Source of the DNA: Candidatus Electronema halotolerans
Lineage (GTDB): Bacteria > Desulfobacterota > Desulfobulbia > Desulfobulbales > Desulfobulbaceae
Length of the DNA stretch: 32,000 nt
Direction: 5' to 3'
Assembly: GCA_942493095.1 (NCBI GenBank)
Contig: OW818675.1
Span: 390,001 to 422,000 of the forward strand
The notes beneath the pieces are model-generated. The model saw only the letters and a program-made list of their open reading frames with translations, made no database searches and was not told where the DNA came from. Both the position numbers and the translations under genes were made by a program. Below are positions 17,462 to 31,203 of this stretch, piece by piece (position 1 is the stretch's first letter; each line of letters begins with the position of its first letter).

Positions 17462-17476
17462 GTTGGATTTTTCCTG

Positions 17477-17505
17477 TTGACGAAGGGAGATGCGCTGTTT
17501 AAATT
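17477..17505 (+). promoter_or_regulatory. candidate sigma70-type promoter for the nuclease cassette
   Basis: TTGACG, a 17-nt spacer, then TAAATT. An inverted repeat GATAGACA-N17-TGTCTATC (17508-17540) follows immediately, about 100 nt upstream of the first cassette gene. Confidence 0.3.
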
Positions 17506-17602
17506 GGATAGACAACACGTTGTAATCTTTCTGTCTATCTTGCAACGATTGCATGGTTAATAGAACCATAGAGCTTTTTGTTAGGGCAAGAAGACCATCA
17601 GC

Positions 17603-18145
17603 ATGAGCCATGATTGGAGGAGAAAAAAAGCCAGGTTCAAGGTACCAAGTGATAAAACACTAGGAATTGTCGTTCTTGGGGCGGTAGCAGTCGTAGCCGC
17701 GTTCACAATCCTCGGCAAAAGAATAGCCAAAGAACCTATTAGCGAAAGTTCTCAAATGTCCCATACCATAAGGGTGATCGACGGAGACACTATTGAATTA
17801 TCATCTGAGAAGCTGAGGCTATTCGGGATGGATGCACCAGAAAAAGGCCAACCATGCAAAAGGAACAATGCCCCCTATGATTGCGGCACTGCTTCTAAAG
17901 AGCATTTAGAATTCTTGCTTACAGGAGCAAAAGTTGAATGCACCAAGAAGAAGAAAGATAAATGGGGAAGATATATTGCCTTGTGCTCTGCGGATGGTGA
18001 AGATGTCAGTCGACTAATGGTACGACATGGATGGGCTATAGCTTATAGAGAATATTCAACTTCTTATGTTGAAGATGAGGAATTTGCTAAATCTAATAGG
18101 CTTGGAATGTGGTCAAAGCAATTTGCCGTTCCATCCGAATGGTGA
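17603..18145 (+). CDS. membrane-anchored thermonuclease (staphylococcal nuclease, SNase) family protein
   Basis: IRVIDGDTIEL...LRLFGMDAPEKGQ...DKWGRYIALC...MVRHGWAIAY carries the SNase Ca/catalytic residues (DGDT Asp, R, D-x-x-E, GRY Arg). The N-terminus is RRKKARFK followed by a hydrophobic helix (LGIVVLGAVAVVAAFTIL). Confidence 0.8.
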   Translation: MSHDWRRKKARFKVPSDKTLGIVVLGAVAVVAAFTILGKRIAKEPISESSQMSHTIRVIDGDTIELSSEKLRLFGMDAPEKGQPCKRNNAPYDCGTASKEHLEFLLTGAKVECTKKKKDKWGRYIALCSADGEDVSRLMVRHGWAIAYREYSTSYVEDEEFAKSNRLGMWSKQFAVPSEW

Positions 18146-18168
18146 AAATCTGATAACGGTGACAAATT

Positions 18169-18612
18169 ATGAGCGAAAATAGCGACGATAAGAACCTCAC
18201 TAAACCATATAGCGGTGTTCCTACGCAGATAAACCTTGGCCCAAGCACGTCCATGGATTTGTCGTGGCTCCCGGAAAACGAGCGGAAAGCCCTTTTGATC
18301 GACTATACAAAGGGTATGATGGATATCAGCCAAAAAGCGCAAGAGCTTCACGTTGATGCTGCTGTCTTGAAAAGAACCCTCGATGACCTATCAGATACTA
18401 CTCGGGAAGTCTCTGATAGTGGAAATGTTGTAACGATAACGCACTCTCAAACGACGAAAGTCGGACGTACAGAAATAATGATGGGGAATAGTGAGCAGGC
18501 CCAAAGTGGAAAATTATCGAAAAGCCAAACCGGGGGAAAGGATTGGACTCCCTACTATATATTTGGCGGCATCTTAGCCTTAATTATTATTGCTGCTTTA
18601 ATGAAGGGCTAA
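18169..18612 (+). CDS. hypothetical tail-anchored protein (147 aa)
   Basis: ORF 23 nt after the nuclease gene. It has a single C-terminal hydrophobic helix (YYIFGGILALIIIAALM). No family was recognised. Confidence 0.55.
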   Translation: MSENSDDKNLTKPYSGVPTQINLGPSTSMDLSWLPENERKALLIDYTKGMMDISQKAQELHVDAAVLKRTLDDLSDTTREVSDSGNVVTITHSQTTKVGRTEIMMGNSEQAQSGKLSKSQTGGKDWTPYYIFGGILALIIIAALMKG

Positions 18613-18613
18613 T

Positions 18614-18913
18614 ATGAAGCCTGTCAAGGTGTATGTTTCGGATGACATCGCCGTGGATTCCGCAATCGAGTATTTGCAAAGCCACATCCCGGATGATGTT
18701 AGAAACTCTCAGGAGTACGGCTTCATATTTCCTGAAATAAAATCATGCATCGAGGAGTTTTCACAAAAAGCAAAGAAATTGGCTAACGCCGGAACAACTA
18801 TCCACATAGACAAAGAATATAAAGTTGCCGGATCAAAAATACTCGTCGTCCTTGAATACCCAAGGAAGAAAGGACTCTTTGAAAGAATTGCAGGGATTCT
18901 TAGAAGAGGATAA
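18614..18913 (+). CDS. hypothetical soluble protein (99 aa)
   Basis: ORF starts 1 nt after the previous stop, and AAGGG lies upstream. No family was recognised. Confidence 0.55.
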   Translation: MKPVKVYVSDDIAVDSAIEYLQSHIPDDVRNSQEYGFIFPEIKSCIEEFSQKAKKLANAGTTIHIDKEYKVAGSKILVVLEYPRKKGLFERIAGILRRG

Positions 18914-18915
18914 AC

Positions 18916-19728
18916 ATGAGTCGATATAGAGGAAATCGATATCGATCCTATAATAGAAGATCGGTAGGACACGAAAGGGCTTTAGAACACATCCGCGAAG
19001 CAGAAGCCCTGTCTAGAGAATTAGGCGGCACGGACCAAGATGTTAAGAACTATTTCTTTTCTCTTTCTTCTGCCCAACTGAGAGCGATCTTCGATAAGTA
19101 CGAATCTCAATACGGTAACTCAGCAAGGGAATATGCTGAGAAAACTCTTCCAAGTTGGAAAAGCGGACGAGTTCATATGAGCGGAATGGTTGCGGAAAGA
19201 CTTTTCAACCTACTGCCACCTGTCATGCTAATCGAGGCAAAATTCCAGTTAACTGAAAGTTTGTGGAAACACGTTGGTCCATCTTCTAACAAAAAATTTT
19301 ATGTTGGAGTCGATGTTAATCTTGAAGATATTTCCAGTCGAGTAAAATCACACTTAGAAGAAGTGGTTACGCATTATCAAATACCAAGCTCAATGGAGGC
19401 AAGGTTCAACTGGCTTTCGCAAGGTGATGTCACTGTAAAACAACAACTACTAAATCATTTTCGCCAACAAGAGAAGGTGCTGCTATCAGAAGCACTTCGA
19501 ACTCAATTGCCGGTATTAATAAATCACTTGAATAGCGAAAAAGGAAGTCTTACAACACACGCAGCCCAAGTCCTTAAGGTAGGGAAACATGAGGTTCAAG
19601 TAGTTGTAACTGAGGGCATCAATGGAGTATCCGAAACAGCACCTGTAAGGATTTCTGAATCAAGCGATTACAGTTGGATATGGTGGGTAGTCGGAATTGT
19701 TTTTGTTTTGTGGCTACTGAGCAAGTAG
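18916..19728 (+). CDS. hypothetical tail-anchored protein (270 aa) with an Arg-rich N-terminus
   Basis: ORF starts 2 nt after the previous stop, with AGAGGA upstream. The C-terminal helix is YSWIWWVVGIVFVLWLL. No family was recognised. Confidence 0.55.
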   Translation: MSRYRGNRYRSYNRRSVGHERALEHIREAEALSRELGGTDQDVKNYFFSLSSAQLRAIFDKYESQYGNSAREYAEKTLPSWKSGRVHMSGMVAERLFNLLPPVMLIEAKFQLTESLWKHVGPSSNKKFYVGVDVNLEDISSRVKSHLEEVVTHYQIPSSMEARFNWLSQGDVTVKQQLLNHFRQQEKVLLSEALRTQLPVLINHLNSEKGSLTTHAAQVLKVGKHEVQVVVTEGINGVSETAPVRISESSDYSWIWWVVGIVFVLWLLSK

Positions 19729-19828
19729 CAGTGGATGCGATGAATAGCCCTAACAATCGCATGCACTCGGACAGCAAAAAGCACCGTTCTCGGTTTCACC
19801 TTTAAGCAGTGCTGTAGCTTCTGCCAAC

Positions 19829-20170
19829 ATGGCAGGCTTACCTTTTTTGATTCAGGCAAAGACTCCAGTCTATGCAACTTTAGTTGCATGTATTGTTGGT
19901 TTTATATTTATTTCCATTGGATTGTGCTGGAAACAGGTCATTAAATGGGCGTACAGAGGAACAGCATTACCTGAAAATATAAATCCTAATTTCGCCGAGA
20001 GTATCGACCAACGAATTTGGCGTTTCATTCAAAGATCAGCATACCCAGCGTTTGTTCTTCTCGGAGTTTCTTTGCCAGCAAAATTTTATTTAGACGCACA
20101 TCCTTTTGCAGAAGAAACACGTGGATTCAACTCGCAAGTGCAACTTTTTTTGGTTATCCAAAAAGCATAG
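19829..20170 (+). CDS. possible small membrane protein (113 aa) whose 3' end is supplied by the MITE-like element
   Basis: Two hydrophobic segments are present. No clear RBS was seen. The last 16 codons lie inside the inverted repeat that starts at 20121. Confidence 0.3.
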   Translation: MAGLPFLIQAKTPVYATLVACIVGFIFISIGLCWKQVIKWAYRGTALPENINPNFAESIDQRIWRFIQRSAYPAFVLLGVSLPAKFYLDAHPFAEETRGFNSQVQLFLVIQKA

Positions 20171-20306
20171 GTTGGCTGGCACTTTGAATACTTCATGTAA
20201 ATTTTCAATTATTTTCTCTTAGTTAGCGACAAAAGCAAAGTTGTGACACTCCCGTAACTGCCTTTTCTTGCAACCAAAAAAAGTTGCACTTGGAACTTGA
20301 ATTCAC
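20121..20306. repeat. MITE-like element 1 (186 bp) with 35-bp terminal inverted repeats starting GTGGATTCAA
   Basis: 20121-20155 (gtggattcaactcgcaagtgcaactttttttggtt) pairs with the reverse complement of 20272-20306 at 31 of 35 positions. It sits exactly at the low-GC to high-GC transition. Confidence 0.55.
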
Positions 20307-20323
20307 CTCGGAGTGCCAAAAAT

Positions 20324-20512
20324 ATGTCGCAAACCAACCTTCTCACCACCTCCACCAATCTGCAAAAGGCTGTTGCGTGGATCAGCGAGACCATGCAGCA
20401 GCACCCGGACAAGCAACGCGCCAAGGTGATGACCGCAGCAGAGCTGCGCTTTGACCTCACCCCTGCGGAATGCGAGTTTCTCCGCCGTCATTTTCACCAG
20501 ACGGACCGCTGA
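20324..20512 (+). CDS. small hypothetical protein (62 aa), translationally coupled to recD2
   Basis: The ATG at 20324 follows GGAG. Its stop TGA (20510-20512) lies 3 nt before the helicase ATG at 20516. GC content is host-like. Confidence 0.45.
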   Translation: MSQTNLLTTSTNLQKAVAWISETMQQHPDKQRAKVMTAAELRFDLTPAECEFLRRHFHQTDR

Positions 20513-20515
20513 CTG

Positions 20516-23038
20516 ATGCTTCCACCTCTGCCCTCTTCGCAGCTCCCGCCGGAAACCCTCAGCGGCGTGATTGAGCGCATCACCTACCACAGCCCGGAAA
20601 ACGGCTGGACAGTGCTGCGGGTCAATCCCTTTGATTCGCGAGGCGGCACGGCCACGGTGATTGTCCATCAGGTTCGAGTCTTTGCCGGGGCAACCATGCA
20701 GTTCAGCGGCGAATGGGTTGTGCATCCCCGCTTTGGCCGCCAGTTCAAGGCCAAGCAGGCTGCGGAGCTGAAACCGGCCTCAGCAGGCGCGCTGGAAAAA
20801 TACCTCGGCTCCGGCCTGATCAAGGGTGTCGGCCCCAAGACGGCCCGCAAGATTGTTGAGCATTTCGGCAAGGATACGTTGGAGGTCTTTGAGGAGCGGA
20901 TTGAGCAACTCACTGACGTGCCCGGCATTGCCGAGAAAAAGCTGAACATGATCAGCACGGCCTGGACAGAGCACCGCGCCATCCGCGACGTGATGCTCTT
21001 CCTTCAGACGCACGGCATCTCCACCCTCTTCGCGGTGCGCATCTACAAGCAGTACGGCGACGAGTCGATTGCCATTGTCTCGGCCAATCCCTACCGCTTG
21101 GCTGAAGATTTCTACGGCATCGGCTTTTTCTCGGCGGACAAAGTGGCTCTGTCCATCGGCTTTGGGCAGGACTCGCCTTTGCGCATCACTGCCGCCATCC
21201 GCCATGTCCTCAATACCAGCCGGGAGCAGGGCCATTGCTGGCTGACCCAGGCCCAGATTGACAAGCAAGTTGCCGAGCTGCTGCAACTCAATCTCTCCGA
21301 CCGCATCGCCCTGTTTCTCCACGAAATGGAGCAGCAGGACAAGCTGCGCGTCCGCCTGCTGGTCACGCGCAAGGGCCGGGAGGCGGAACGCTGCTACTAC
21401 TCGAAGAGCCTGTATTATGACGAGAAGTACGTGGCCGAGCGGCTGCGGGCTATGGTGCGGCCTTTGCCGCATAGTGTTGAACGGATTACCGATTGGCTGC
21501 GGCGTGCTGGAGAAACGACAAGTTTTCAGCTTGCGGCAGAACAGGCCTCGGCAATTTTGACCATAGCCTGCTGTCAGTTCGCCATTCTCACCGGCGGGCC
21601 GGGCTGCGGCAAGACCACGACCACGCGGGTCTTGGTTGCCCTGCTGCGGGCTATGGGCCGCTCAGTGACGCTGGCTGCGCCCACAGGCCGGGCTGCCCAG
21701 CGCATGGGCGAGGTCATCGGCTTGGAGGCCAAAACCATCCACCGTTTGCTGGAGTTTCAGGGCACGGGCTTCAAGCGCAACGAGGACAATCCCCTCAAGA
21801 CGGATGTCTTGATTGTTGATGAATGCTCGATGCTTGACATCAGCCTGACTGCGGCCCTGCTCAAGGCGGTCAGCAAGGACACAGCCTTGGTCTTTATCGG
21901 CGACGCGGATCAGCTCCCCTCGGTCGGGGCAGGCAATGTGCTGCGTGATTTGATCGCGTCGGGCAGCATTCCGGTCTGCACTTTGAACACCATTTTCCGG
22001 CAGGCGAGCCGCTCCAGCATCATCACTTTTGCCCATCAGATCAACTGCGGCGAAACGCCCAAGGTCGGCTCACCCTTCAAGCATCCTGAGCTGTGGAAGA
22101 GCAACGACTGCCTGTTCATTGATTCCGACGAGGCGACCCAAGCCCAGCTCGGTTTCATTGCCAAGGCCCGGCAGCATTTTCAGACGGTCGAGGAGCGCGA
22201 GCAGGCCGGGACTGAAGACCCGTTCAGCTTTGAGGCGGAAACGATCAGCAGTCCGTATCAGCGTTTTGAGCTGCCGGAGCAGTTCCAGCATGTTGACTTG
22301 CAGAGCTTGGCCGTGGCGGAAGGCCCGGCGGCGGAGCTGTCCGCAGTGGTGAAAAAGGTCCATCCGTGGTCATCGCTCTATTACGGCCTGACGGCGGCGG
22401 ACACGGTGCGGCGGCTTTATACGGAATGGATTCCCAAATACTGCGGCAAGGACTGCGAGATTCAGGTGCTTTCGCCCATGAACCGGGGCAGTCTCGGCAC
22501 AGGCGCGCTCAACAAGATGCTGCAAGAGGCGGTCAATCCACCGCAGGAAGGGCGGGCCGAAATCAGGCTCGGCGGCGAGCGGCTTTTCCGCACCGGCGAC
22601 CGGGTCATTCATCGGCGCAACAACTATGATCTCGGCGTGTTCAACGGCGACATCGGCAGGATTATCGAGGTGAACAACGCGGATTTGACCCTGCGCGTCC
22701 GCTTCTTCCCGGATCAGCGTGAGGTCGAGTATCAGCGCGAGCAGCTTACGGAATTGGAACTGGCCTACGCGATCACCATTCACAAGGCGCAGGGTTCAGA
22801 GTTTGAGGCGGTGATTCTGCCGGTGCTGACCCAGCATTTTCGGATGCTCTTCCACAACCTGCTCTACACCGGTCTGACGCGGGCACGGAAGCTGGCGGTG
22901 TTCGTCGGCACGAGGAAGGCGTTGACGATGGCGGTGAAGAATCGGGATACGGGGCTGCGGCAGACGGCGTTAAGGGAGTTGGTGGGAGGAAACGCTGTGG
23001 ATTCAAATTGCATAGGAGTTACGCAGTTGGCTTTATAA
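20516..23038 (+). CDS. recD2: RecD2-type (RecD-like) SF1 ATP-dependent DNA helicase, full length
   Basis: N-terminal LSGVIERITYHSPENGWTVLRV, helix-hairpin-helix GSGLIKGVGPKTARKIV, Walker A LTGGPGCGKTT, DECSML, IGDADQLPSVGAGNVL and TIHKAQGSEF. The last 16 codons (NAVDSNCIGVTQLAL) are encoded by MITE-like element 2. Confidence 0.9.
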   Translation: MLPPLPSSQLPPETLSGVIERITYHSPENGWTVLRVNPFDSRGGTATVIVHQVRVFAGATMQFSGEWVVHPRFGRQFKAKQAAELKPASAGALEKYLGSGLIKGVGPKTARKIVEHFGKDTLEVFEERIEQLTDVPGIAEKKLNMISTAWTEHRAIRDVMLFLQTHGISTLFAVRIYKQYGDESIAIVSANPYRLAEDFYGIGFFSADKVALSIGFGQDSPLRITAAIRHVLNTSREQGHCWLTQAQIDKQVAELLQLNLSDRIALFLHEMEQQDKLRVRLLVTRKGREAERCYYSKSLYYDEKYVAERLRAMVRPLPHSVERITDWLRRAGETTSFQLAAEQASAILTIACCQFAILTGGPGCGKTTTTRVLVALLRAMGRSVTLAAPTGRAAQRMGEVIGLEAKTIHRLLEFQGTGFKRNEDNPLKTDVLIVDECSMLDISLTAALLKAVSKDTALVFIGDADQLPSVGAGNVLRDLIASGSIPVCTLNTIFRQASRSSIITFAHQINCGETPKVGSPFKHPELWKSNDCLFIDSDEATQAQLGFIAKARQHFQTVEEREQAGTEDPFSFEAETISSPYQRFELPEQFQHVDLQSLAVAEGPAAELSAVVKKVHPWSSLYYGLTAADTVRRLYTEWIPKYCGKDCEIQVLSPMNRGSLGTGALNKMLQEAVNPPQEGRAEIRLGGERLFRTGDRVIHRRNNYDLGVFNGDIGRIIEVNNADLTLRVRFFPDQREVEYQREQLTELELAYAITIHKAQGSEFEAVILPVLTQHFRMLFHNLLYTGLTRARKLAVFVGTRKALTMAVKNRDTGLRQTALRELVGGNAVDSNCIGVTQLAL

Positions 23039-23151
23039 CTCGTTGATTTTGTTCAACTGGCAGTTTATGCGGCCAAGGGTCAACTTGCTGTAATAATTGA
23101 ACTCCTATTTTCAACTGCGTAAGTCCTATTGCATTTACAACTTGAATCCAC
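22997..23151. repeat. MITE-like element 2 (155 bp) with imperfect 33/40-nt terminal inverted repeats starting GTGGATTCAA
   Basis: Left arm is gtggattcaaattgcataggagttacgcagttg. The reverse complement of the right arm is gtggattcaagttgtaaatgcaataggacttacgcagttg. The arms share a 10-nt terminal block and an 11-nt internal block. The element is followed by TTTTTT. Confidence 0.5.
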
Positions 23152-23158
23152 GAATTTT

Positions 23159-24457
23159 TTAGAGGCTGTAAGTTAACGACAGCACGCTATTGAAACTATC
23201 CTCAGAAAAGCTCGCGCCAATATCCACCTTGATATCTTTGTTCCAGTTTACACCACCACCTAATGTATAATACATTTGATCAGAATCAATTGCCTGAAAA
23301 CCATCATGATCCGGGATGCGGAAGAGACCAGCCCGAATTTGACAATTCAAGCTGTTAGAAACAATAAAGGTCTTTTCCGTGCCGAAACGGAGAATTACAC
23401 CGTCGTCTATTTCCTCATCCAGCGTATTGCCACTCGTGCTGGCATCTGCCAACGCGGAATATCCCACCCAATCTGCCTGCGCGGTTAGCAGCCAGTTTGG
23501 AACAGGATACCACGCCACACCAACACTCCAGATGTCTGGAGTGTCAAAAATGGCCTGCAAGTTTTCGATGGCATCATCGCAGCTACTCAGGGAGCATGTG
23601 GTTTCTACACTGCTGTAATCAATGCTGAATGAACTGCCTTTGCGGTATGAAAGAGCGGCAGAAATATCAGAAGCCGGTTTGAACAGCATTCCTAAGCTGA
23701 AGCTAAAGTCATTGTCGTTACCGTCAATTATGCCGCCATAGCTGATCGAGCTGTCATGAACACTGCCGGTATAGGTGTTCGTCGTCCACATTTCACGCAA
23801 ATTAGTGTTCAGTGTTTCCAAACTGACCGCAGCACCGAAAGAAAACAGCTCGCTATAGTTGAAAGCAGCAGCTATTCCATAACTCCTCTTTCGATATTCC
23901 TCAATGTTTTTTTCAGAAATATTCTCTTGCAGAAGATTTAAGGTGCTATCGAATACCGGCTCCGGCCCGGAGTTTTGATTGTCGCTGCCAGTGAAAGCCG
24001 AACTGCGATAATAGACAGAGGCGGTTAGCTTTCCGGGAACGACTTGCATCGCCGCACCAGCAAAAGAAAGATCGGCAATGCTGTCATCAAAGGTTCTGAA
24101 CTCATCCAGATCAGGTCCCAAACCGATATTGTTGACTGAAGCATAGGTGTCCATGTAATCTTTTTCATAGGACGAATAGCTAATATCGACTGCAAGCTGC
24201 ATATCTCGCAATGCAGACAGGCCTGCCGGATTCAGAGCCGAAGCCCGCACGTCATCAGCAACAGCTAACGCTGCTCCACCCATGGCGAGATATTTGCCAC
24301 CTGTAACTTCAGAAGGTTCTAAGTCAAAAGGCAGATGGAGTGCCCAATAGCCATTGCTGCTGAGACCATGAGGGTTGCCCCATGCCACACTGCTCAGACA
24401 AAATGAAGCTGTAATGGCGCTCAACAGAATCATTTTCACCTTTACACATGGAGACAT
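23159..24457 (-). CDS. outer-membrane beta-barrel protein, possibly FadL/TodX-like
   Basis: Signal peptide (ILLSAITASFCLSSVAWG). The block YLAMGGAALAVADDVRASALNPAGLSAL resembles the N-terminal FadL-family motif. Alternating beta-strand patterns run to the C-terminus. GGGAGG lies 7-8 nt before the ATG. Confidence 0.55.
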   Translation of the reverse strand: MSPCVKVKMILLSAITASFCLSSVAWGNPHGLSSNGYWALHLPFDLEPSEVTGGKYLAMGGAALAVADDVRASALNPAGLSALRDMQLAVDISYSSYEKDYMDTYASVNNIGLGPDLDEFRTFDDSIADLSFAGAAMQVVPGKLTASVYYRSSAFTGSDNQNSGPEPVFDSTLNLLQENISEKNIEEYRKRSYGIAAAFNYSELFSFGAAVSLETLNTNLREMWTTNTYTGSVHDSSISYGGIIDGNDNDFSFSLGMLFKPASDISAALSYRKGSSFSIDYSSVETTCSLSSCDDAIENLQAIFDTPDIWSVGVAWYPVPNWLLTAQADWVGYSALADASTSGNTLDEEIDDGVILRFGTEKTFIVSNSLNCQIRAGLFRIPDHDGFQAIDSDQMYYTLGGGVNWNKDIKVDIGASFSEDSFNSVLSLTYSL

Positions 24458-24466
24458 CTTTCTTTC

Positions 24467-24507
24467 CTCCCTTTTTATAAAAAGGGAGAGACAAAATTAT
24501 CTCTCCC
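24467..24507 (-). promoter_or_regulatory. overlapping hairpins at the OMP ribosome-binding site (terminator-like stem plus a 22-bp perfect palindrome)
   Basis: On the minus strand GGGAGAGA-uaauuuug-UCUCUCCC-UUUUUA forms a terminator-like stem. The 22-bp palindrome CTCCCTTTTTATAAAAAGGGAG (24467-24488) shares the CUCCC arm with that stem and includes the SD purines. Confidence 0.35.
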
Positions 24508-24671
24508 CGGGCTGATATAACGGTTGCACGAAAAATGGCAATCAGTTTGATATGGCGACCATCATATAAACTCATTTGCTTTATATAATTAAACTCCTTA
24601 ACAAAGCAGAGATGTCTGATAGCCGTTCACCACATAACCGCTATAGTTCCGACATAGATCACGCCTTGGAA

Positions 24672-25256
24672 TTATTTCCGATCATACGCACAGCATCCAT
24701 TCTTGCTGGCCGGATAGAAAGATTCAAAGTTTTGACCTTTGGCGTACTGCGAACAGCGTTGGCCACTTTTGCTGACAAAGGTGGATTCACAGCTCATCCG
24801 GTAGGACTCGCCGCAGACAATATTTGGCCTGTCGGTCATTTTTTCAAATGATGCCGTGCTACCTATCGCCTCGGACACTGCACAGAAAATTTCTGCTGAC
24901 CATTCGCCGGACGCATTACCTATCATGCTGCACTCGTCAGTACATTTATTAACGATGTCATCTAACGAGCTGTTCAAGCCTGCAATGTATCCGTTACCAA
25001 AGTCCACTGCCATCTTCCCTGTAAACCTTCTGTTTTTTATATCACGAACAACTCGATCTACAGCATCGCCGACAATCTGCACCAAGTTGTCCGCTCTGTG
25101 GCAATCTTGGCCGAGGTTATTCCATGCAGCGGAAACAAGTTTAGATGAAGTCCGCTTCGCCATGTTGTAGAAACCGCTCTGGGCTGCGGCATTTTTCGCA
25201 TACCCATTCAACAACAGGAGAGATGATGCGAATAGAACTAACATTAGTTTTTTCAT
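24672..25256 (-). CDS. secreted Cys-rich hypothetical protein (194 aa, 9 Cys)
   Basis: Signal peptide MKKLMLVLFASSLLLLNGYAKNAAA and an RBS-like AGAGGAAAAG upstream. Low GC. No family was recognised. Confidence 0.55.
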   Translation of the reverse strand: MKKLMLVLFASSLLLLNGYAKNAAAQSGFYNMAKRTSSKLVSAAWNNLGQDCHRADNLVQIVGDAVDRVVRDIKNRRFTGKMAVDFGNGYIAGLNSSLDDIVNKCTDECSMIGNASGEWSAEIFCAVSEAIGSTASFEKMTDRPNIVCGESYRMSCESTFVSKSGQRCSQYAKGQNFESFYPASKNGCCAYDRK

Positions 25257-25299
25257 ACGCTTTTCCTCTTTTTTGGTGATTGATGGTCTCTATTTGCCT

Positions 25300-25857
25300 T
25301 TACTCAGCACAGATTTTGCTGAATTTCGATACGGGAAAATTATAACTGAAGGCCGTGGAAAAGCTTCCCCGAACCTTGCTTTTGCAATCAATGCTGCATA
25401 CTTGGTATGGGTATGAAATATTTAAAACCATATCAACGATTTGAGTGATAGTAATATTCCACGACCCTAACTGAACTTCGCATTCATGAATGAACGGCAC
25501 AATGGTGCTGACGATAAAACTCTCCTCCATGCAGCTAACGCTGTTTTCTTGGTTGATACGGTCAATTTCGTCATAGTAAGAATGGATCAGCGTTGGCAGG
25601 AAATCGTTCAGGATGACATCGCTCGAATAACTGCGCTGTATCGAACGTAGCGAGCGGGTCAGAATCTTTGGCATGTGCTCGTCGCGAATGGTTTTCCACG
25701 GGATACCATTCGCTTTCAAGTTTTTGTAGATAGTACGCACCGATGCTTTGGCGAGCTTATCAGCCACTTCGCGAGCATCTCCTGTTTGTGAATACGCCAC
25801 GCTAGGCACAACGAGAAACAAGCCAAACAGCAGAATAATTAGTTCTTTCTTATTCAT
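25300..25857 (-). CDS. secreted hypothetical protein (185 aa, 5 Cys)
   Basis: Signal peptide MNKKELIILLFGLFLVVPSVAYS and GGAGGA upstream of the ATG. Low GC. No family was recognised. Confidence 0.55.
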   Translation of the reverse strand: MNKKELIILLFGLFLVVPSVAYSQTGDAREVADKLAKASVRTIYKNLKANGIPWKTIRDEHMPKILTRSLRSIQRSYSSDVILNDFLPTLIHSYYDEIDRINQENSVSCMEESFIVSTIVPFIHECEVQLGSWNITITQIVDMVLNISYPYQVCSIDCKSKVRGSFSTAFSYNFPVSKFSKICAE

Positions 25858-25944
25858 TTTATATCCTCCATTGAATTATTAAATGCCCAGCCGTAAGCGG
25901 TAGGGTATCAATTTCTCGGCTTCCTATCTCTGATCTCAAAAATT

Positions 25945-25973
25945 ATTAAACTGAAAAAATTTCCATCTGTCAA
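25945..25973 (-). promoter_or_regulatory. near-consensus sigma70 promoter for the secreted-protein/OMP operon
   Basis: The minus strand reads TTGACA, a 17-nt spacer, then TTTAAT, about 90 nt upstream of the ATG at 25857. Confidence 0.45.
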
Positions 25974-26343
25974 ATTAAATTTTACGCAGCGGAACCGCCA
26001 CCGTGATCGTATAGCGGTTTCAGGTTGTATGGTTATCAGAAAAAGATTAAACTTGACTTGTCTGTTTTTTCCATTTTTTCACACACGGAGGTCTGCCATG
26101 ATTTATTCTATTGATTTCAGAAAGAAAGTCTTGTCTGTTTATGAAAAACAGAAATCATTGAGAAGAACTGCAGATTTGCTTGACGTTTCCTATAAATTTG
26201 TTCAAAGTCTTGTAAAAAGATGGAAGACTGAGGGGACGATTGAGCCGAAGCCTCATAAAGGCGGAAATCCTCCGAAAATCAAGGAAGTTCATATTCCTTT
26301 TCTGACCAGCATGATTGATGACGAGAACGATCTTACGCTTGAA

Positions 26344-27648
26344 GGGAACCTCGAAAAATTCGAGATAAAGCTTTTTCAGCTTATCAATAGTGTCTTTGAC
26401 AGTTGAAAACTTCAAATACATAAATTGTTATTTCCTGTTTTTTATTTATTTTGAGCAAACTTCTGTTGAAATATGTTCCTGAATGCGTTTCTTTTTTTTA
26501 AATCTTAAATTTTATTAAGAGTTCCGTACCTGTCAATATTGAACGTCAAGTTTCTCAAGCCTATTTTCGCAGCAGCGCGAATGAAACCTGTTCCTCGGAG
26601 AATCATATTGCCAGCACGTTGCGCCTGGATGCCGAAGACGTGTTCAATCCGGGAGCGAATTTTTGATCTTGTCCGATTTCCCTGCTTCTCCCATTCGGTC
26701 AGTTTCCGGCTTCGTGTTCCTTTGCGGTTCAGATGCTCTCTGTATCCATTCTCGTTCAACCAGTTGAGCTTTTTTTCAGATCTGTATGCCGAATCCGCAT
26801 AGATATCCCGACTGGTGTTGTCAGGGTCAAGCAGCTCCTCAAAAATATTGCTGTCATGAACCTCGGCACTGGTCACCGCATATTTTCGGATGAATTTATG
26901 CTTCACATCAACAGATATATGATTTTTATAACCAAAAAAGCTTCTGCCGTTCTTTTTGGTCCAACGGGCATCAGTATCCTTCTGCGCCTGCTTATTTTCA
27001 CTCCATCCTTCAGGCTGTTCACCATTCTTGATCTGCTTGTTTTCCTTGCGGCTGTTACGCTGGATCGGGGCGTTGACTATGGAAGCGTCGACTATCTGCC
27101 CTTTTCTGGCTTGATATCCATTTTCATCAAGAAATTTGTCAAAAACAGAAAACAGTTCCTCGATTTTTCCTGCTTTGGTCAAAGTTTCACGAAAAAGCCA
27201 TATCGTTGTCGCATCTGGAACTTTGTCAGCCGCCCGAAGTCCAAGGAATCTGGAAAACGAATATCTGTCAAGAATTTGATATTCCATCCCTTTATCAGAA
27301 AGATTGTATAATGATTGCAAAATTAAAATTTTGAACATCATGACTGAATCATAACCTTTAGCTCCAGCATTTGATTTCACAGGCTTTCTTTTTGCTTCTT
27401 CAAGAATTGGCCGAAATATTTCCCAGTCAATAGCCTTGTTGATCTTAACTAAAGGATCACCTGCTTTGTCAATTCGGGAAAGACGAATATAAAAATCAAA
27501 AAATCCAAGTTGGTTCATCTGTGCATCTCCGGCAGCATGAGTTGAATTGATGCCGAAATTATAACATAATAGACTGAAATTTCAATATTAAAATAAAAAA
27601 TAACAAAACAAATGCAGCAGAATGGATGTTGTATTTTTCGAGGAACCC
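26344..27648 (-). mobile_element. IS5-family insertion sequence (1305 bp) nested in the IS630 transposase gene
   Basis: Inverted repeats GGGAACCTCGAAAAAT (26344-26359) and ATTTTTCGAGGAACCC (27633-27648) match at 14 of 16 positions. They are flanked by a TGAA direct repeat (26340-26343 and 27649-27652). Removing the element restores the IS630 reading frame. Confidence 0.85.
26505..27518 (-). CDS. IS5-family DDE transposase (337 aa)
   Basis: DRYSFSRFLGL...VPDATTIWLFRE, IVDASIVNAP, FGYKNHISVD, EVHDS, IYADSAYRS, SRIEHVFG and the LRNLTFN tail match the InsH/IS5 pattern. Confidence 0.9.
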   Translation of the reverse strand: MNQLGFFDFYIRLSRIDKAGDPLVKINKAIDWEIFRPILEEAKRKPVKSNAGAKGYDSVMMFKILILQSLYNLSDKGMEYQILDRYSFSRFLGLRAADKVPDATTIWLFRETLTKAGKIEELFSVFDKFLDENGYQARKGQIVDASIVNAPIQRNSRKENKQIKNGEQPEGWSENKQAQKDTDARWTKKNGRSFFGYKNHISVDVKHKFIRKYAVTSAEVHDSNIFEELLDPDNTSRDIYADSAYRSEKKLNWLNENGYREHLNRKGTRSRKLTEWEKQGNRTRSKIRSRIEHVFGIQAQRAGNMILRGTGFIRAAAKIGLRNLTFNIDRYGTLNKI

Positions 27649-28377
27649 TGAAGAGATGTGTGATCGCTTATACGAGAAATTCAATTTAAAAATAGCACCT
27701 TCCACGCTGTGCGAAACTCTCGCCAGACTGAAAATCAGCCGGAAAAAAAAACTTTCCGCGATCCGGCGGCGTATAAAGAAGAAAATATAGCAAAGACAGT
27801 TAATTACCTTGCAGGCCTGATCGAGGCTGACAAAAAGAATTTCATCTTTATTGATGAGACAGGATGCTGTTTGAACATGTCGAGAAAATTTGCAAGATCA
27901 AGAAAAGGAACAAGAGCTTTTTCAAAAAGACCTTCAGGTAAAGGGAAAAGAATAAGCATGATAGGAGCTGTAAAGTTTGGAAAAATATTGAAGTGCATGA
28001 AATTTAAAGGAACCATGACAGGAGATGTCTTTTATTTCTATATAAAAAATTATCTTTTGAAATATCTTGACAGCAGTAAGACAGTCGTTCTTGACAATGC
28101 CAGTCCTCATAAAAACAAAGAAGCTCTCGCTTTGATCAGAAGTACAGGAGCGAAGATCATTTTCCTCCCTCCTTATCGTCCTGAACTGAACCCTATTGAA
28201 TACTGCTGGTCAGTAATGAAAAACACTATAAGAAAATTGAAGCCGAGAACAGAGCGTGAGCTGATGGAAGCTTATGATATATCTCTGAAAACGGTTAAGT
28301 CAAAATCAATCAAATCGTTTTTCCGTCATTGCTGGGTTTGATATCTGTTCAATACGAAACCGCTATACGTCAGGTTT

Positions 28378-30387
28378 GTGTCTTGGCCGGGCCGGGGCCA
28401 CCTCTCCACCCTGTTCGCGGTGCGCATCTACAAGCAGTATGGCGATGAATCCATTGCCCTTGTCTCGGCCAATCCCTATCGTCTGGCCGAAGATTTCTAC
28501 GGCATCGGCTTTTTCTCGGCAGACAAGGTGGCCCTGTCCATTGGTTTCAGCCAAGATTCGTCTCTGCGCATCACTGCCGCCATCCGCCACGTCCTCAACG
28601 CCAGCCGGGAACAGGGGCATTGCTGGCTGACCCAGGCCCAGATTGACAAGCAAGTATCCGAGCTGCTGCAACTGAGTCTTTCTGACCGCATCGCCCTGTT
28701 TCTCCACGAAATGGAGCAGCAGGACAAGCTGCGTGTCCGCCTGCTGGTCACGCGCAAGGGCCGGGAGGCGGAACGCTGCTACTACTCGAAGAGCCTGTAT
28801 TATGACGAGAAGTACGTGGCCGAGCGGCTGCGGGCTATGGTGCGGCCTTTGCCGCATAGTGTTGAACGGATTACCGATTGGCTGCGGCGTGCTGGAGAAA
28901 CGACAAGTTTTCAGCTTGCGGCAGAACAGGCCTCGGCAATTTTGACCATAGCCTGCTGTCAGTTCGCCATTCTCACCGGCGGGCCGGGCTGCGGCAAGAC
29001 CACGACCACGCGGGTCTTGGTCGCCCTGCTGCGGGCTATGGGCCGCTCAGTGACGCTGGCTGCGCCCACAGGCCGGGCCGCGCAGCGCATGGGCGAGGTC
29101 ATCGGCTTGGAGGCCAAGACCATCCACCGTTTGCTGGAGTTCCAAGGCACAGGCTTCAAGCGCAACGAGGACAATCCCCTCAAGACGGATGTCCTGATTG
29201 TTGATGAATGCTCAATGCTTGACATCAGCCTGACAGCGGCCCTGCTCAAGGCGGTCAGCAAGGAAACAGCCTTGGTCTTTATCGGCGATGCGGATCAGCT
29301 CCCTTCGGTCGGGGCAGGCAATGTGCTGCGTGATCTGATCGCATCCGGCAGCATTCCAGTCTGCACTTTGAACACCATTTTCCGCCAGGCGAGCCGCTCC
29401 AGCATCATCACCTTTGCCCACCAGATCAATCAAGGCGAAACGCCCAAGGTCGGCTCGCCGTTCAAGCATCCTGAGCTGTGGAAGAGCAACGACTGCCTGT
29501 TCATTGATTCCGACGAGGCGACGCAGGCCCAGCTCGGTTTCATCGCCAAGGCCCGGCAGCATTTTCAGACGGTCGAAGAGCGCGAGCAGGCCGGGACAGA
29601 AGACCCGTTCAGCTTTGAGGCTGAAACGATTAGCAGTCCGTATCAGCGTTTTGAGCTGCCAGAGCAGTTTCAGCATGTCAATCTGCACAGCTTGGCGGTT
29701 GCCGAAGGCCCGGTAGAAGAGCTGGCCGCAGTGGTGAAAAAGGTGCATCCTTGGTCATCGCTCTACTACGGCCTGACAGCGGCGGACACGGTGCGGCGGC
29801 TTTATACGGAATGGATTCCCAAATATTGCGGCAAGGACTGCGAAATTCAGGTGCTCTCGCCCATGAACCGGGGCAGTCTCGGCACAGGCGCGCTCAACAA
29901 GATGCTGCAAGAGGCGGTCAATCCACCGCAGGAAGGGCGGGCCGAAATCAGGCTCGGCGGCGAGCGGCTTTTCCGCACCGGCGACCGGGTCATTCATCGG
30001 CGCAACAACTATGATCTCGGCGTGTTCAACGGCGACATCGGCAGGATTATCGAGGTGAACAACGCGGATTTGACCCTGCGCGTCCGCTTCTTCCCGGATC
30101 AGCGTGAGGTCGAGTATCAGCGCGAGCAGCTTACGGAATTGGAACTGGCCTACGCGATCACCATTCACAAGGCGCAGGGTTCAGAGTTTGAGGCGGTGAT
30201 TCTGCCGGTGCTGACCCAGCATTTTCGGATGCTCTTCCACAACCTGCTCTACACCGGTCTGACGCGGGCACGGAAGCTGGCGGTGTTCGTCGGCACGAGG
30301 AAGGCGTTGACGATGGCGGTGAAGAATCGGGATACGGGGCTGCGGCAGACGGCGTTAAGGGACTTGGTGGGCGGAGAGGATTGCTGA
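28378..30387 (+). pseudogene. recD2: 5'-truncated second copy of the RecD2-type helicase (lacks about 167 N-terminal codons; helicase core intact)
   Basis: Colinear with 21018-22990 at a constant 7,385-bp offset, with no indels. Homology begins about 34 bp from the IS630 right end. The frame is open from a GTG at 28378, and all helicase motifs are retained. Confidence 0.7.
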
Positions 30388-30405
30388 GAAATATTACAGT
30401 CGCAA

Positions 30406-30796
30406 TCACCAGATGCGCTGCAAGCCAGCATACTCATCAAAGGCTTGATCTCTGCTCAGAAGCGGCATGTTCTCCGCCAAACTTTGCGCGATGAGCAGGC
30501 GGTCAAACGGGTCTTTGTGATGAAACGGCATTGATCTGACAAAGTCCAGATGCTTCGGCTGCACAGGCAGCAGTTTCATCGCATTACCCCTGACATGCGT
30601 CTCAACCAAGTCCGGGAAGGAGAAGTTCAGCTTCAGTTTGCCCATGCTGGCCTTGATGGACATTTCCCAGAGGCTGGGCGATGCTGATCAGCCGTTCGTT
30701 GCGGATATCTTCGATGAGCTGCCGCGCCGGGCCGCTCAGATTCGGATTGCCGCCGATGAACCAGAGAAAAGTGTGCGTGTCCAGCAGAAGCTTTAT
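30406..30796 (-). pseudogene. vapC: PIN-domain VapC-type toxin gene, frameshifted and lacking an ATG start
   Basis: The C-terminal frame gives SLWEMSIKASMGKLKL...HHKDPFDRLLIAQSLAENMPLLSRDQAFDEY. The N-terminal part (I)KLLLDTHTFLWFIGGNPNLSGPARQLIEDIRNERLISIA is in another frame. The span is 391 nt, one more than a multiple of 3, and the shift lies near 30673-30680. The first codon is ATA. Confidence 0.6.
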
Positions 30797-31143: not shown

Positions 31144-31203
31144 GTCGGCACGAGGAAAGCCTTGGCAATGGCGGTCAAGAATCTAATCACGATCTGGCGG
31201 CAG
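31144..31203 (+). pseudogene. short relic of a recD2 3' end (third copy)
   Basis: 31144-31182 (gtcggcacgaggaaagccttggcaatggcggtcaagaat) matches 30289-30327 and 22904-22942 at 34 of 39 positions. It translates to VGTRKALAMAVKN, against VGTRKALTMAVKN in the helicases. Confidence 0.55.

Follow-up and report, generated by a model that had tools for sequence, protein, structure and literature searches.

Two kinds of described system come closest to the locus treated here, and neither is homologous to it. SNIPE, a single protein, combines an N-out transmembrane (TM) helix and DUF4041 with a GIY-YIG nuclease on the cytoplasmic side; phage lambda DNA is cut by it during injection, and binding of the tape measure protein or the entry receptor is also part of its definition (Saxton et al., bioRxiv 10.1101/2025.11.03.685801). 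The others are periplasmic DNases of mobile genetic elements (MGEs), namely IdeA/SxnA of Vibrio integrative and conjugative elements and Dns/CJE0566/CJE1441 of Campylobacter integrated elements, which destroy transforming DNA (PMC12378983). Our locus is a cassette of four genes, A to D, within a stretch of 32,000 nucleotides (nt) from the closed genome of the cable bacterium Candidatus Electronema halotolerans (contig OW818675.1, positions 390,001 to 422,000); this whole stretch is called the window below, and positions at the Electronema locus follow its numbering. Gene A encodes an SNase-fold nuclease, and B, C and D belong to unannotated families. The cassette is an operon that spreads by horizontal transfer and occurs in many phyla of bacteria. 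We favor, at a probability of roughly 45%, its reading as a self-contained mobile module against foreign DNA that would act at the cell envelope, a defence role that we infer from context.

Cassette and SNIPE follow the same logic with unrelated proteins: in each there is a nuclease at the inner membrane, discrimination between self and non-self would be by location, the proposed action is on entering DNA, and the system is widespread and mobile. SNIPE, however, is one polypeptide whose GIY-YIG nuclease is cytoplasmic, whereas the cassette comprises four genes, pairing a separate enzyme of SNase, NS or PLD type with three partners of no recognized fold, and its nuclease is predicted to be N-in and periplasmic; a Pfam scan found neither DUF4041 nor GIY-YIG in the four cassette proteins. 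IdeA, SxnA and Dns are exported non-specific nucleases carried as mobile-element cargo and destroying DNA in the periplasm, to which the export signals and MGE contexts of the cassette nuclease correspond, but they are stand-alone genes, while the cassette nuclease heads an operon with a B-C-D core that is also found nuclease-free. Gene A is itself a true member of the staphylococcal nuclease/YncB-type thermonucleases (PF00565), judging from its hidden Markov model (HMM) match, Ca2+ ligands and catalytic Arg/Glu, and differs from them in a predicted uncleaved anchor, a conserved basic cytoplasmic tail, four extra cysteines and the operon linkage to B-C-D. With CBASS and Pycsar the cassette has in common a conserved core, an effector slot holding unrelated folds and sensor-domain fusions, but it has no cyclase or other component shared with them, and its effectors are exported; effectors of known core-plus-effector defence systems are generally cytoplasmic or membrane-embedded. 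Keyword searches of the literature found no description of the A-B-C-D gene set, an apparent match (PMC7641849) being discarded since it concerns eukaryotic Tudor-SN. An initial annotation of this DNA had proposed an undescribed envelope-associated nuclease cassette, and that proposal holds: the partners fall in no known families, no paper was found, gene order is conserved and a nuclease is frequent.

Gene order, distribution and genomic context

The cassette stands out by composition and spacing, much as first annotated. Right after the stop of rmlC (rfbC), guanine-plus-cytosine (GC) content drops from 0.53-0.60 to 0.39-0.47, stays low from about 17460 to about 20300, and climbs back near 20300; the cassette is at 0.425 GC versus 0.578 in the remaining window. 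The four open reading frames (ORFs) lie on the + strand within 17603-19728, with the intergenic gaps of 23 (A/B), 1 (B/C) and 2 nt (C/D) that had been claimed, and A, C and D carry the locus tags GCAAIG_01920, 01925 and 01930. The cassette is preceded by rmlB and rmlC and followed by a RecD2-type superfamily 1 (SF1) helicase, and an insertion sequence (IS) is present in the window.

Scanning genomes for D gave 34 loci, in Nitrospirota, Thermodesulfobacteriota, Acidobacteriota, Planctomycetota, Synergistota, Chloroflexota, Myxococcota, Alpha-, Beta- and Gammaproteobacteria, and others. B lay just upstream of D at 32 of the 34 (tblastn), and at 31 of these 32 the slot between B and D held an ORF of roughly 93-124 amino acids (aa; most 99-105) with a shared pattern, the filter listing none at the remaining one (L003). 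With metagenomic and viral loci added there were 107 distinct D loci; among the 58 distinct loci that were well flanked (i.e., with at least 1.5 kb upstream), B was present at 57 and C, by HMM, at 50. The same order in other genomes, for which the initial annotation had called, was found: across more than 10 phyla and dozens of genomes unrelated to one another, nearly all loci examined keep B-C-D synteny, and B-C-D is an invariant three-gene core.

No flanking gene is common to the loci, and the GC of the cassette stays at 0.36-0.47 across flanks that range from 0.26 to 0.67. Ca. Electronema sp. TJ and sp. VV (L132, L133) have other genes after rmlBC and no cassette, such that in the three Electronema genomes examined rmlB-rmlC is followed by radical-SAM genes, a glycosyltransferase or the cassette; in cable bacteria this region seems to be a hotspot of variable integration, where the cassette would mark a recent foreign acquisition. 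Because its flanks are unrelated, its GC is independent of the host and it is missing from the two other Electronema genomes, we take B-C-D to be a self-contained, often transferred unit.

Complete A-B-C-D cassettes are flanked by two IS256-type transposases in Nitrosomonas and adjoin a phage-type integrase in Gallionellales, and in Marinimicrobia their neighbours are restriction-modification genes of type I or Eco47II; one locus has UDG, a GIY-YIG protein and a TIR of Pycsar type beside it, and the surroundings of another resemble a prophage, with genes for terminase, Dam and integrase. B-C-D without nuclease is found on a conjugative plasmid of Vibrio harveyi, beside Abi_2, IS elements, a resolvase and an MqsA-type toxin-antitoxin (TA) module, and the module occurs on 3 contigs of IMG/VR. 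On the conflict side, 150 flanking ORFs included type IIG, III and II restriction-modification, HerA, CHAT, Pycsar-type TIR, resolvases and PADLOC candidate families (PDC), together with glnA, sulfite reductase and recC; PIN/Phd genes are near some loci. Given such mixed neighbourhoods, the context favors a conflict or MGE-cargo role, short of proof. As to the defence-island setting first suggested, restriction-modification, HerA, TIR, CHAT, Abi, TA or PDC genes were seen at some loci and housekeeping flanks at others.

The several loci set among housekeeping genes would suit a role outside conflict, in which the nuclease scavenges extracellular DNA (eDNA) for phosphorus or nucleotides, or remodels biofilm eDNA, with BCD as a membrane accessory. 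Secreted SNase, NS and PLD nucleases are often nutritional or eDNA enzymes, and the hosts here are mainly environmental diderms. We nonetheless judge such a role very unlikely, in view of the patchy, transfer-driven distribution with host-independent GC, the carriage of the module on MGEs and the cytoplasmic nucleic-acid sensor domains to which D is fused (described below); moreover, no transporter or phosphatase was linked to the module in the flanks examined.

Gene A and the exported nucleases

Gene A matches the Pfam SNase profile PF00565 over positions 1-107 of 107 (E = 6.5e-16, 59.2 bits, cutoff 21), and its IDGDT, RLFGMDAPE and WGR segments align with D19/D21/T22, R35/D40/E43 and R87 of Staphylococcus aureus nuclease. 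When 36 partner SNases are aligned, conservation of these active-site residues, which include the Ca2+ ligands (D21, D40, T41 region) and the catalytic R35, E43 and R87, is 97% or higher; the S. aureus sequence used there agrees with a separate alignment to staphylococcal nuclease chains. Judged by its conserved motifs, then, gene A is a catalytically intact SNase, and the earlier assignment of Ca-binding and catalytic residues was sound. The only match of gene A in PADLOC-DB v2.0.0 was to the generic 'SNc+LTD' model (4.6e-10).

Four cysteines that the staphylococcal enzyme lacks are kept in 78% of the 36 partner SNases, which points to disulfide-bonded, extracytoplasmic enzymes. The N-terminus of gene A consists of a strongly basic tail (MSHDWRRKKARFK) and then one hydrophobic helix, the candidate anchor. 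Close relatives share the tail motif DWRR[KR]K...P[SQ]D, and operon-first SNases carry a conserved basic tail predicted to be cytoplasmic; SNases downstream of D or unlinked to B have ordinary cleavable signal peptides. Because basic tail, anchor, conserved cysteines and the N-termini of relatives agree, the predicted topology is well supported, namely a type II signal-anchored SNase, N-in and facing outward, as the initial annotation had it when it placed the nuclease domain in the periplasm.

Partner nucleases are of three unrelated folds, SNase (most), Endonuclease_NS and Nuc-like phospholipase D (PLD). An SNase lies directly upstream of B in about half of the well-flanked loci and just downstream of D in a few, and in many relatives A and B share a 4-nt overlap. 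Endonuclease_NS, about 1 kb off, replaces the SNase in L009 and L027, and a Nuc-like PLD is the neighbour in L033, L030 and L051/L098, with a fragment in L103. Only these PLD partners were accepted; a wider set from an iterative search was rejected, its counts having been inflated by drift via a small shared C-terminal motif. All accepted partner nucleases have an N-terminal signal peptide, lipobox or anchor. With a nuclease within 3 kb at 34 of the 58 well-flanked loci, an exported nuclease stands next to or near BCD far above chance frequency. Three unrelated, exported, non-specific folds in one slot are what one typically sees where an effector is encoded; we regard the nuclease as a swappable accessory or effector, missing from about 40% of loci, and since loci without it exist, we regard B-C-D as the functional core. 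What survives of the four-gene nuclease cassette originally described is the synteny of its genes and the common presence of a nuclease, but the nuclease is optional and the invariant core is B-C-D only.

A motif, TVYVTRTGxKYHRxxC, was seen in lipoproteins of ~100 aa adjoining B-C-D (L020 8512-8820, L033 1682-1981, L104 110-415), and it also ends partner nucleases of all three folds (L027 8853-9896, L049 10310-11032, L033 692-1669). In L027 it gives only a weak Pfam match to Ada_Zn_binding; it may be a common DNA- or metal-binding module of these exported nucleases. A Nitrospirales locus (L001 3857-4891) encodes a second exported protein 1.3 kb upstream of the cassette, with an SNase domain and ComEA-like helix-hairpin-helix repeats.

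An exported nuclease that is cargo in IS, integrase, prophage and plasmid settings could also be an MGE-borne anti-transformation device, degrading competence-imported DNA in the periplasm and so guarding the carrier element from recombinational curing, with BCD regulating or positioning the nuclease. There is precedent in that MGE-encoded periplasmic DNases blocking transformation are documented, and that transforming double-stranded DNA in diderms is truly exposed in the periplasm (PMC12378983). The known examples are stand-alone, however, and the device would leave the BCD core, the HIRAN/WYL fusions of D relatives and the nuclease-less loci unexplained. Many of the hosts, furthermore, are not known for natural competence, and we consider the idea quite unlikely.

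The B, C and D proteins and their proposed function

Scanned one by one against Pfam, NCBIfam, PHROGs and PADLOC, B, C and D gave no significant match; pooling 129 family members for such a scan yielded nothing significant either, and profile searches of PDB sequences returned no matches. The initial annotation had raised the chance that known prophage, partition or housekeeping families would emerge here, and none did in these collections or by Foldseek. It had also called the three ORFans, a label that has to be withdrawn. They are unannotated members of large conserved families and not orphans; profile and word-indexed searches yielded many homologs: 241 for B, which is 93% identical to a protein of Nitrosomonas sp. 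Is35, and 484 for D in the word-indexed search (top identity 81%, in a Gallionellales metagenome-assembled genome), with an exhaustive profile search for D reaching 800 representative clusters (at 50% identity) at E <= 1e-3 and 634 at E <= 1e-10.

The AlphaFold model of D, built with a 33-sequence alignment, is confident (predicted local distance difference test, pLDDT, 81.5; predicted TM-score 0.67). It consists mainly of helices, the C-terminal one a TM helix (H253-269), and also has three short strands; Foldseek matched it to nothing in PDB or BFVD (best E 0.66 and 0.15, respectively, with TM-scores of about 0.1). Some D relatives have an N-terminal HIRAN (P0046, P0155, P0363) or WYL domain (P0307, P0333, P0374), and further ones have weak N-terminal matches to HARE-HTH or winged-helix domains; all of these are domains linked, in conflict systems, with the sensing of nucleic acids or ligands. 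Further relatives extend past the TM helix, through a Ser/Pro-rich linker, into Cys-containing repeats or SH3_3, and since these extensions follow the TM helix they fix the predicted topology of the family as N-in/C-out. Long variants of about 590-630 aa (P0361, P0370, P0376, P0383, P0391, P0392, P0397, P0398, P0401; P0383 without predicted TM helix) have mutually homologous post-TM extensions with no significant Pfam match. In P0361 the extension is made up of three Cys-containing repeats in tandem (...QWSTGD...C...GHFAKVQA) and presumably senses or binds something in the periplasm. B likewise has one C-terminal hydrophobic helix in AlphaFold (H127-146). The single C-terminal TM helices first read in B and D are thus reproduced, and the periplasmic extensions of D relatives support the accompanying prediction that the partners are tail-anchored inside.

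Between residues about 35 and 78, D has an annexin-repeat-like motif (ELGGTDQDVK...LRAIFDKYESQYG...YAEKT). The family's invariant segment, ELGGTDxDVK...Y..YG...E-x-T, is similar to the consensus of annexin repeats, and five helices follow in matching order in the model. Tested three ways, the likeness to annexin was not significant. Residues about 25-97 score 18.8 bits against Pfam Annexin, below the cutoff of 25 (E = 0.0018), and only 3 of 86 D members match it at E <= 0.01; hhalign of D with annexin A5 repeat 2 gave a probability of 5.5% (P = 0.007, 37% identity, 35 columns); and no annexin was among the Foldseek matches of the model. In gene C only G60 is nearly invariant, and the C-terminus is basic (mean net charge +3.6). 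An amphipathic membrane-binding helix at that end was discarded as unconvincing (hydrophobic moment 0.50 versus 0.44 in shuffles), and a PHROGs holin match was weak (E = 0.085, below significance).

Single TM helices on two core proteins are also what abortive infection by compartment breach (a 'reverse holin') would use. Here D would trigger B, and D itself, to permeabilize the inner membrane, the nuclease stored outside would reach cytoplasmic DNA together with Ca2+, and the cell would die, nuclease-less variants aborting via membrane collapse. This would account as well for BCD without nuclease and for effectors that are all exported and either Ca2+-dependent or non-specific, and the Gly/Ala-rich anchor of the SNase (LGIVVLGAVAVVAAFTILG) might be compared with signal-arrest-release anchors. 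Neither B nor D, however, has a PHROGs match, a significant Pfam match or a likeness in PDB to holins or pore-formers; one TM helix per protein would demand large oligomers, which, like toxicity of the cassette, are hypothetical. We hold a breach to be unlikely.

Returning to the reading that we favor, of a mobile module against foreign DNA at the envelope, D would detect nucleic acid at the inner membrane face, as its basic N-tail and the HIRAN/WYL fusions of its relatives suggest. B, D and the nuclease anchor may make a trans-membrane assembly relaying the signal outward, for which the conserved cytoplasmic tail of the nuclease is a likely docking site, and the Ca2+-dependent nuclease would then destroy DNA in transit at the envelope. 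The host chromosome would be spared because the nuclease sits in a different compartment. Nuclease-less variants might block entry themselves or borrow a host periplasmic nuclease. The cassette would then represent an envelope-located, nuclease-based type of exclusion, built from components without known relatives.

Several observations weigh against this. Phage and conjugative DNA is generally thought to be shielded in a protective channel across the periplasm, so that access of the nuclease to incoming DNA is hard to explain, and since 24 of the 58 well-flanked loci show no nuclease within 3 kb, the core can do without one. PADLOC-DB v2.0.0 contains no model that B, C or D match at E <= 1. 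Many loci have housekeeping neighbours (sdh, glnA or sulfite reductase, for example), and the module is in just 2 of 72,556 records of deposited plasmids and was not found in deposited phage genomes. The favored model is hypothetical, and its complex of B, D and nuclease is putative, with a poor AlphaFold model for B (overall pLDDT 48.5, unusable for a fold search) that is probably due to B requiring partners.

A more far-reaching version, possible but doubtful, has B-C-D as an unrecognized, widespread envelope-surveillance immune core, of a fold without known relative, that discriminates self from non-self by compartment only. A non-specific Ca2+-dependent nuclease would be kept outside and either released onto entering DNA or let into the cell; the trigger would be tail-anchored D sensing nucleic acid or Ca2+ influx at the inner membrane face, where the weak annexin-like GGTD...YG...E-x-T motif might act as a Ca2+/membrane switch. 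Should the module serve defence or exclusion, it would be a new immunity architecture with the effector across the membrane from the sensor, and self-immunity would on that account come by compartmentation rather than by sequence or modification. To date, experiments have demonstrated compartment-based self-immunity for SNIPE alone, whose topology is opposite. The module would also provide a role for three unannotated families, amounting to about 800 clusters for D alone, and a reason for the frequent MGE carriage of secreted SNase, NS and PLD nucleases. The cassette is small (2.1 kb) and self-contained, and simple to clone and assay.

The Electronema locus around the cassette

Coordinates of the cassette and of the low-GC island in which it lies are collected in Table 1. 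The helicase, IS, miniature inverted-repeat transposable element (MITE), promoter and TA context that the initial annotation had drawn around the cassette is local to this Electronema genome and outside the system. Helicase and IS are indeed present in the window, but neither travels with the module at other loci; RecD2 in particular was near BCD at none of the 34 genome loci, and the helicase was rejected as part of the system for that reason.

Table 1. Features of the cassette and the surrounding low-GC island, in window coordinates
Feature	Position	Strand	Basis
Leader, rmlC stop to SNase start; low-GC island starts here	17462..17602	+	GC drop
Gene A, SNase-fold nuclease, 180 aa	17603..18145	+	Pfam SNase match, basic tail, TM anchor
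Gene B, tail-anchored, core, most conserved component, 147 aa	18169..18612	+	Homologs, synteny, C-terminal TM helix
Gene C, soluble, core, fast-evolving, 99 aa	18614..18913	+	ORF in B-D slot, HMM
Gene D, tail-anchored, predicted cytoplasmic helical domain, basic N-tail, signature gene, 270 aa	18916..19728	+	Homologs, AlphaFold
ORF E, hydrophobic, 113 aa, within low-GC island	19829..20170	+	Not conserved in related loci
35-nt inverted-repeat pair ('MITE-like'), distal edge of low-GC island	20121-20155 / 20272-20306	.	

ORF E had no relative at the 34 related genome loci, its exact sequence is missing from the protein collection, and it had no match in Pfam, NCBIfam, PHROGs or PADLOC. We ruled it out as a fifth component because it is not conserved elsewhere; it is probably not a module member. 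The arms of the inverted-repeat pair are 89% complementary with 116 nt between them, and the pair, the single one in the window, sits ~400 nt past the conserved module, after a non-conserved ORF. This candidate mobile element is what the initial annotation took for a MITE-like end of the cassette. At 17477-17505 a sigma-70-like promoter match (9 of 12) is of a kind found 4 times against 5.0 +/- 2.1 in shuffles, and terminator-like sites are no commoner than chance (3 versus 3.5 +/- 1.7); with counts not above shuffles, a promoter or terminator of the cassette's own was set aside. No Rfam family matched in a scan of the leader for an RNA element. The supposed TA pair was not confirmed either, the candidate small ORFs at 30158-30663 having no PDB match and one of them overlapping the second helicase copy.

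The RecD2-like helicase is duplicated in the window (20516-23038 and 28378-30387). The repeats are collinear at a constant spacing of 7,385 nt from ~21018 to 22943, with 89% identity over a 300-nt reference and short collinear repeats of 94-100%. The second copy (669 aa) falls in the same 90% protein cluster as the first (840 aa), and a third, partial match (88%) lies at about 31144-31183. A second low-GC island (about 0.38-0.47; 23000-28370) separates the two copies. It encodes an outer-membrane protein of FadL/TodX type (23159-24457, - strand), a helix-turn-helix protein and two unknown ORFs, and contains an IS whose DDE transposase lies at 26505-27518. This IS is delimited by 31-nt inverted repeats at 26008 and 28339 and adjoins the second helicase copy at its truncated 5' end. 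Where GC returns to host level, an ORF of 71 aa (20297-20512) stops 3 nt ahead of the start of the first helicase.

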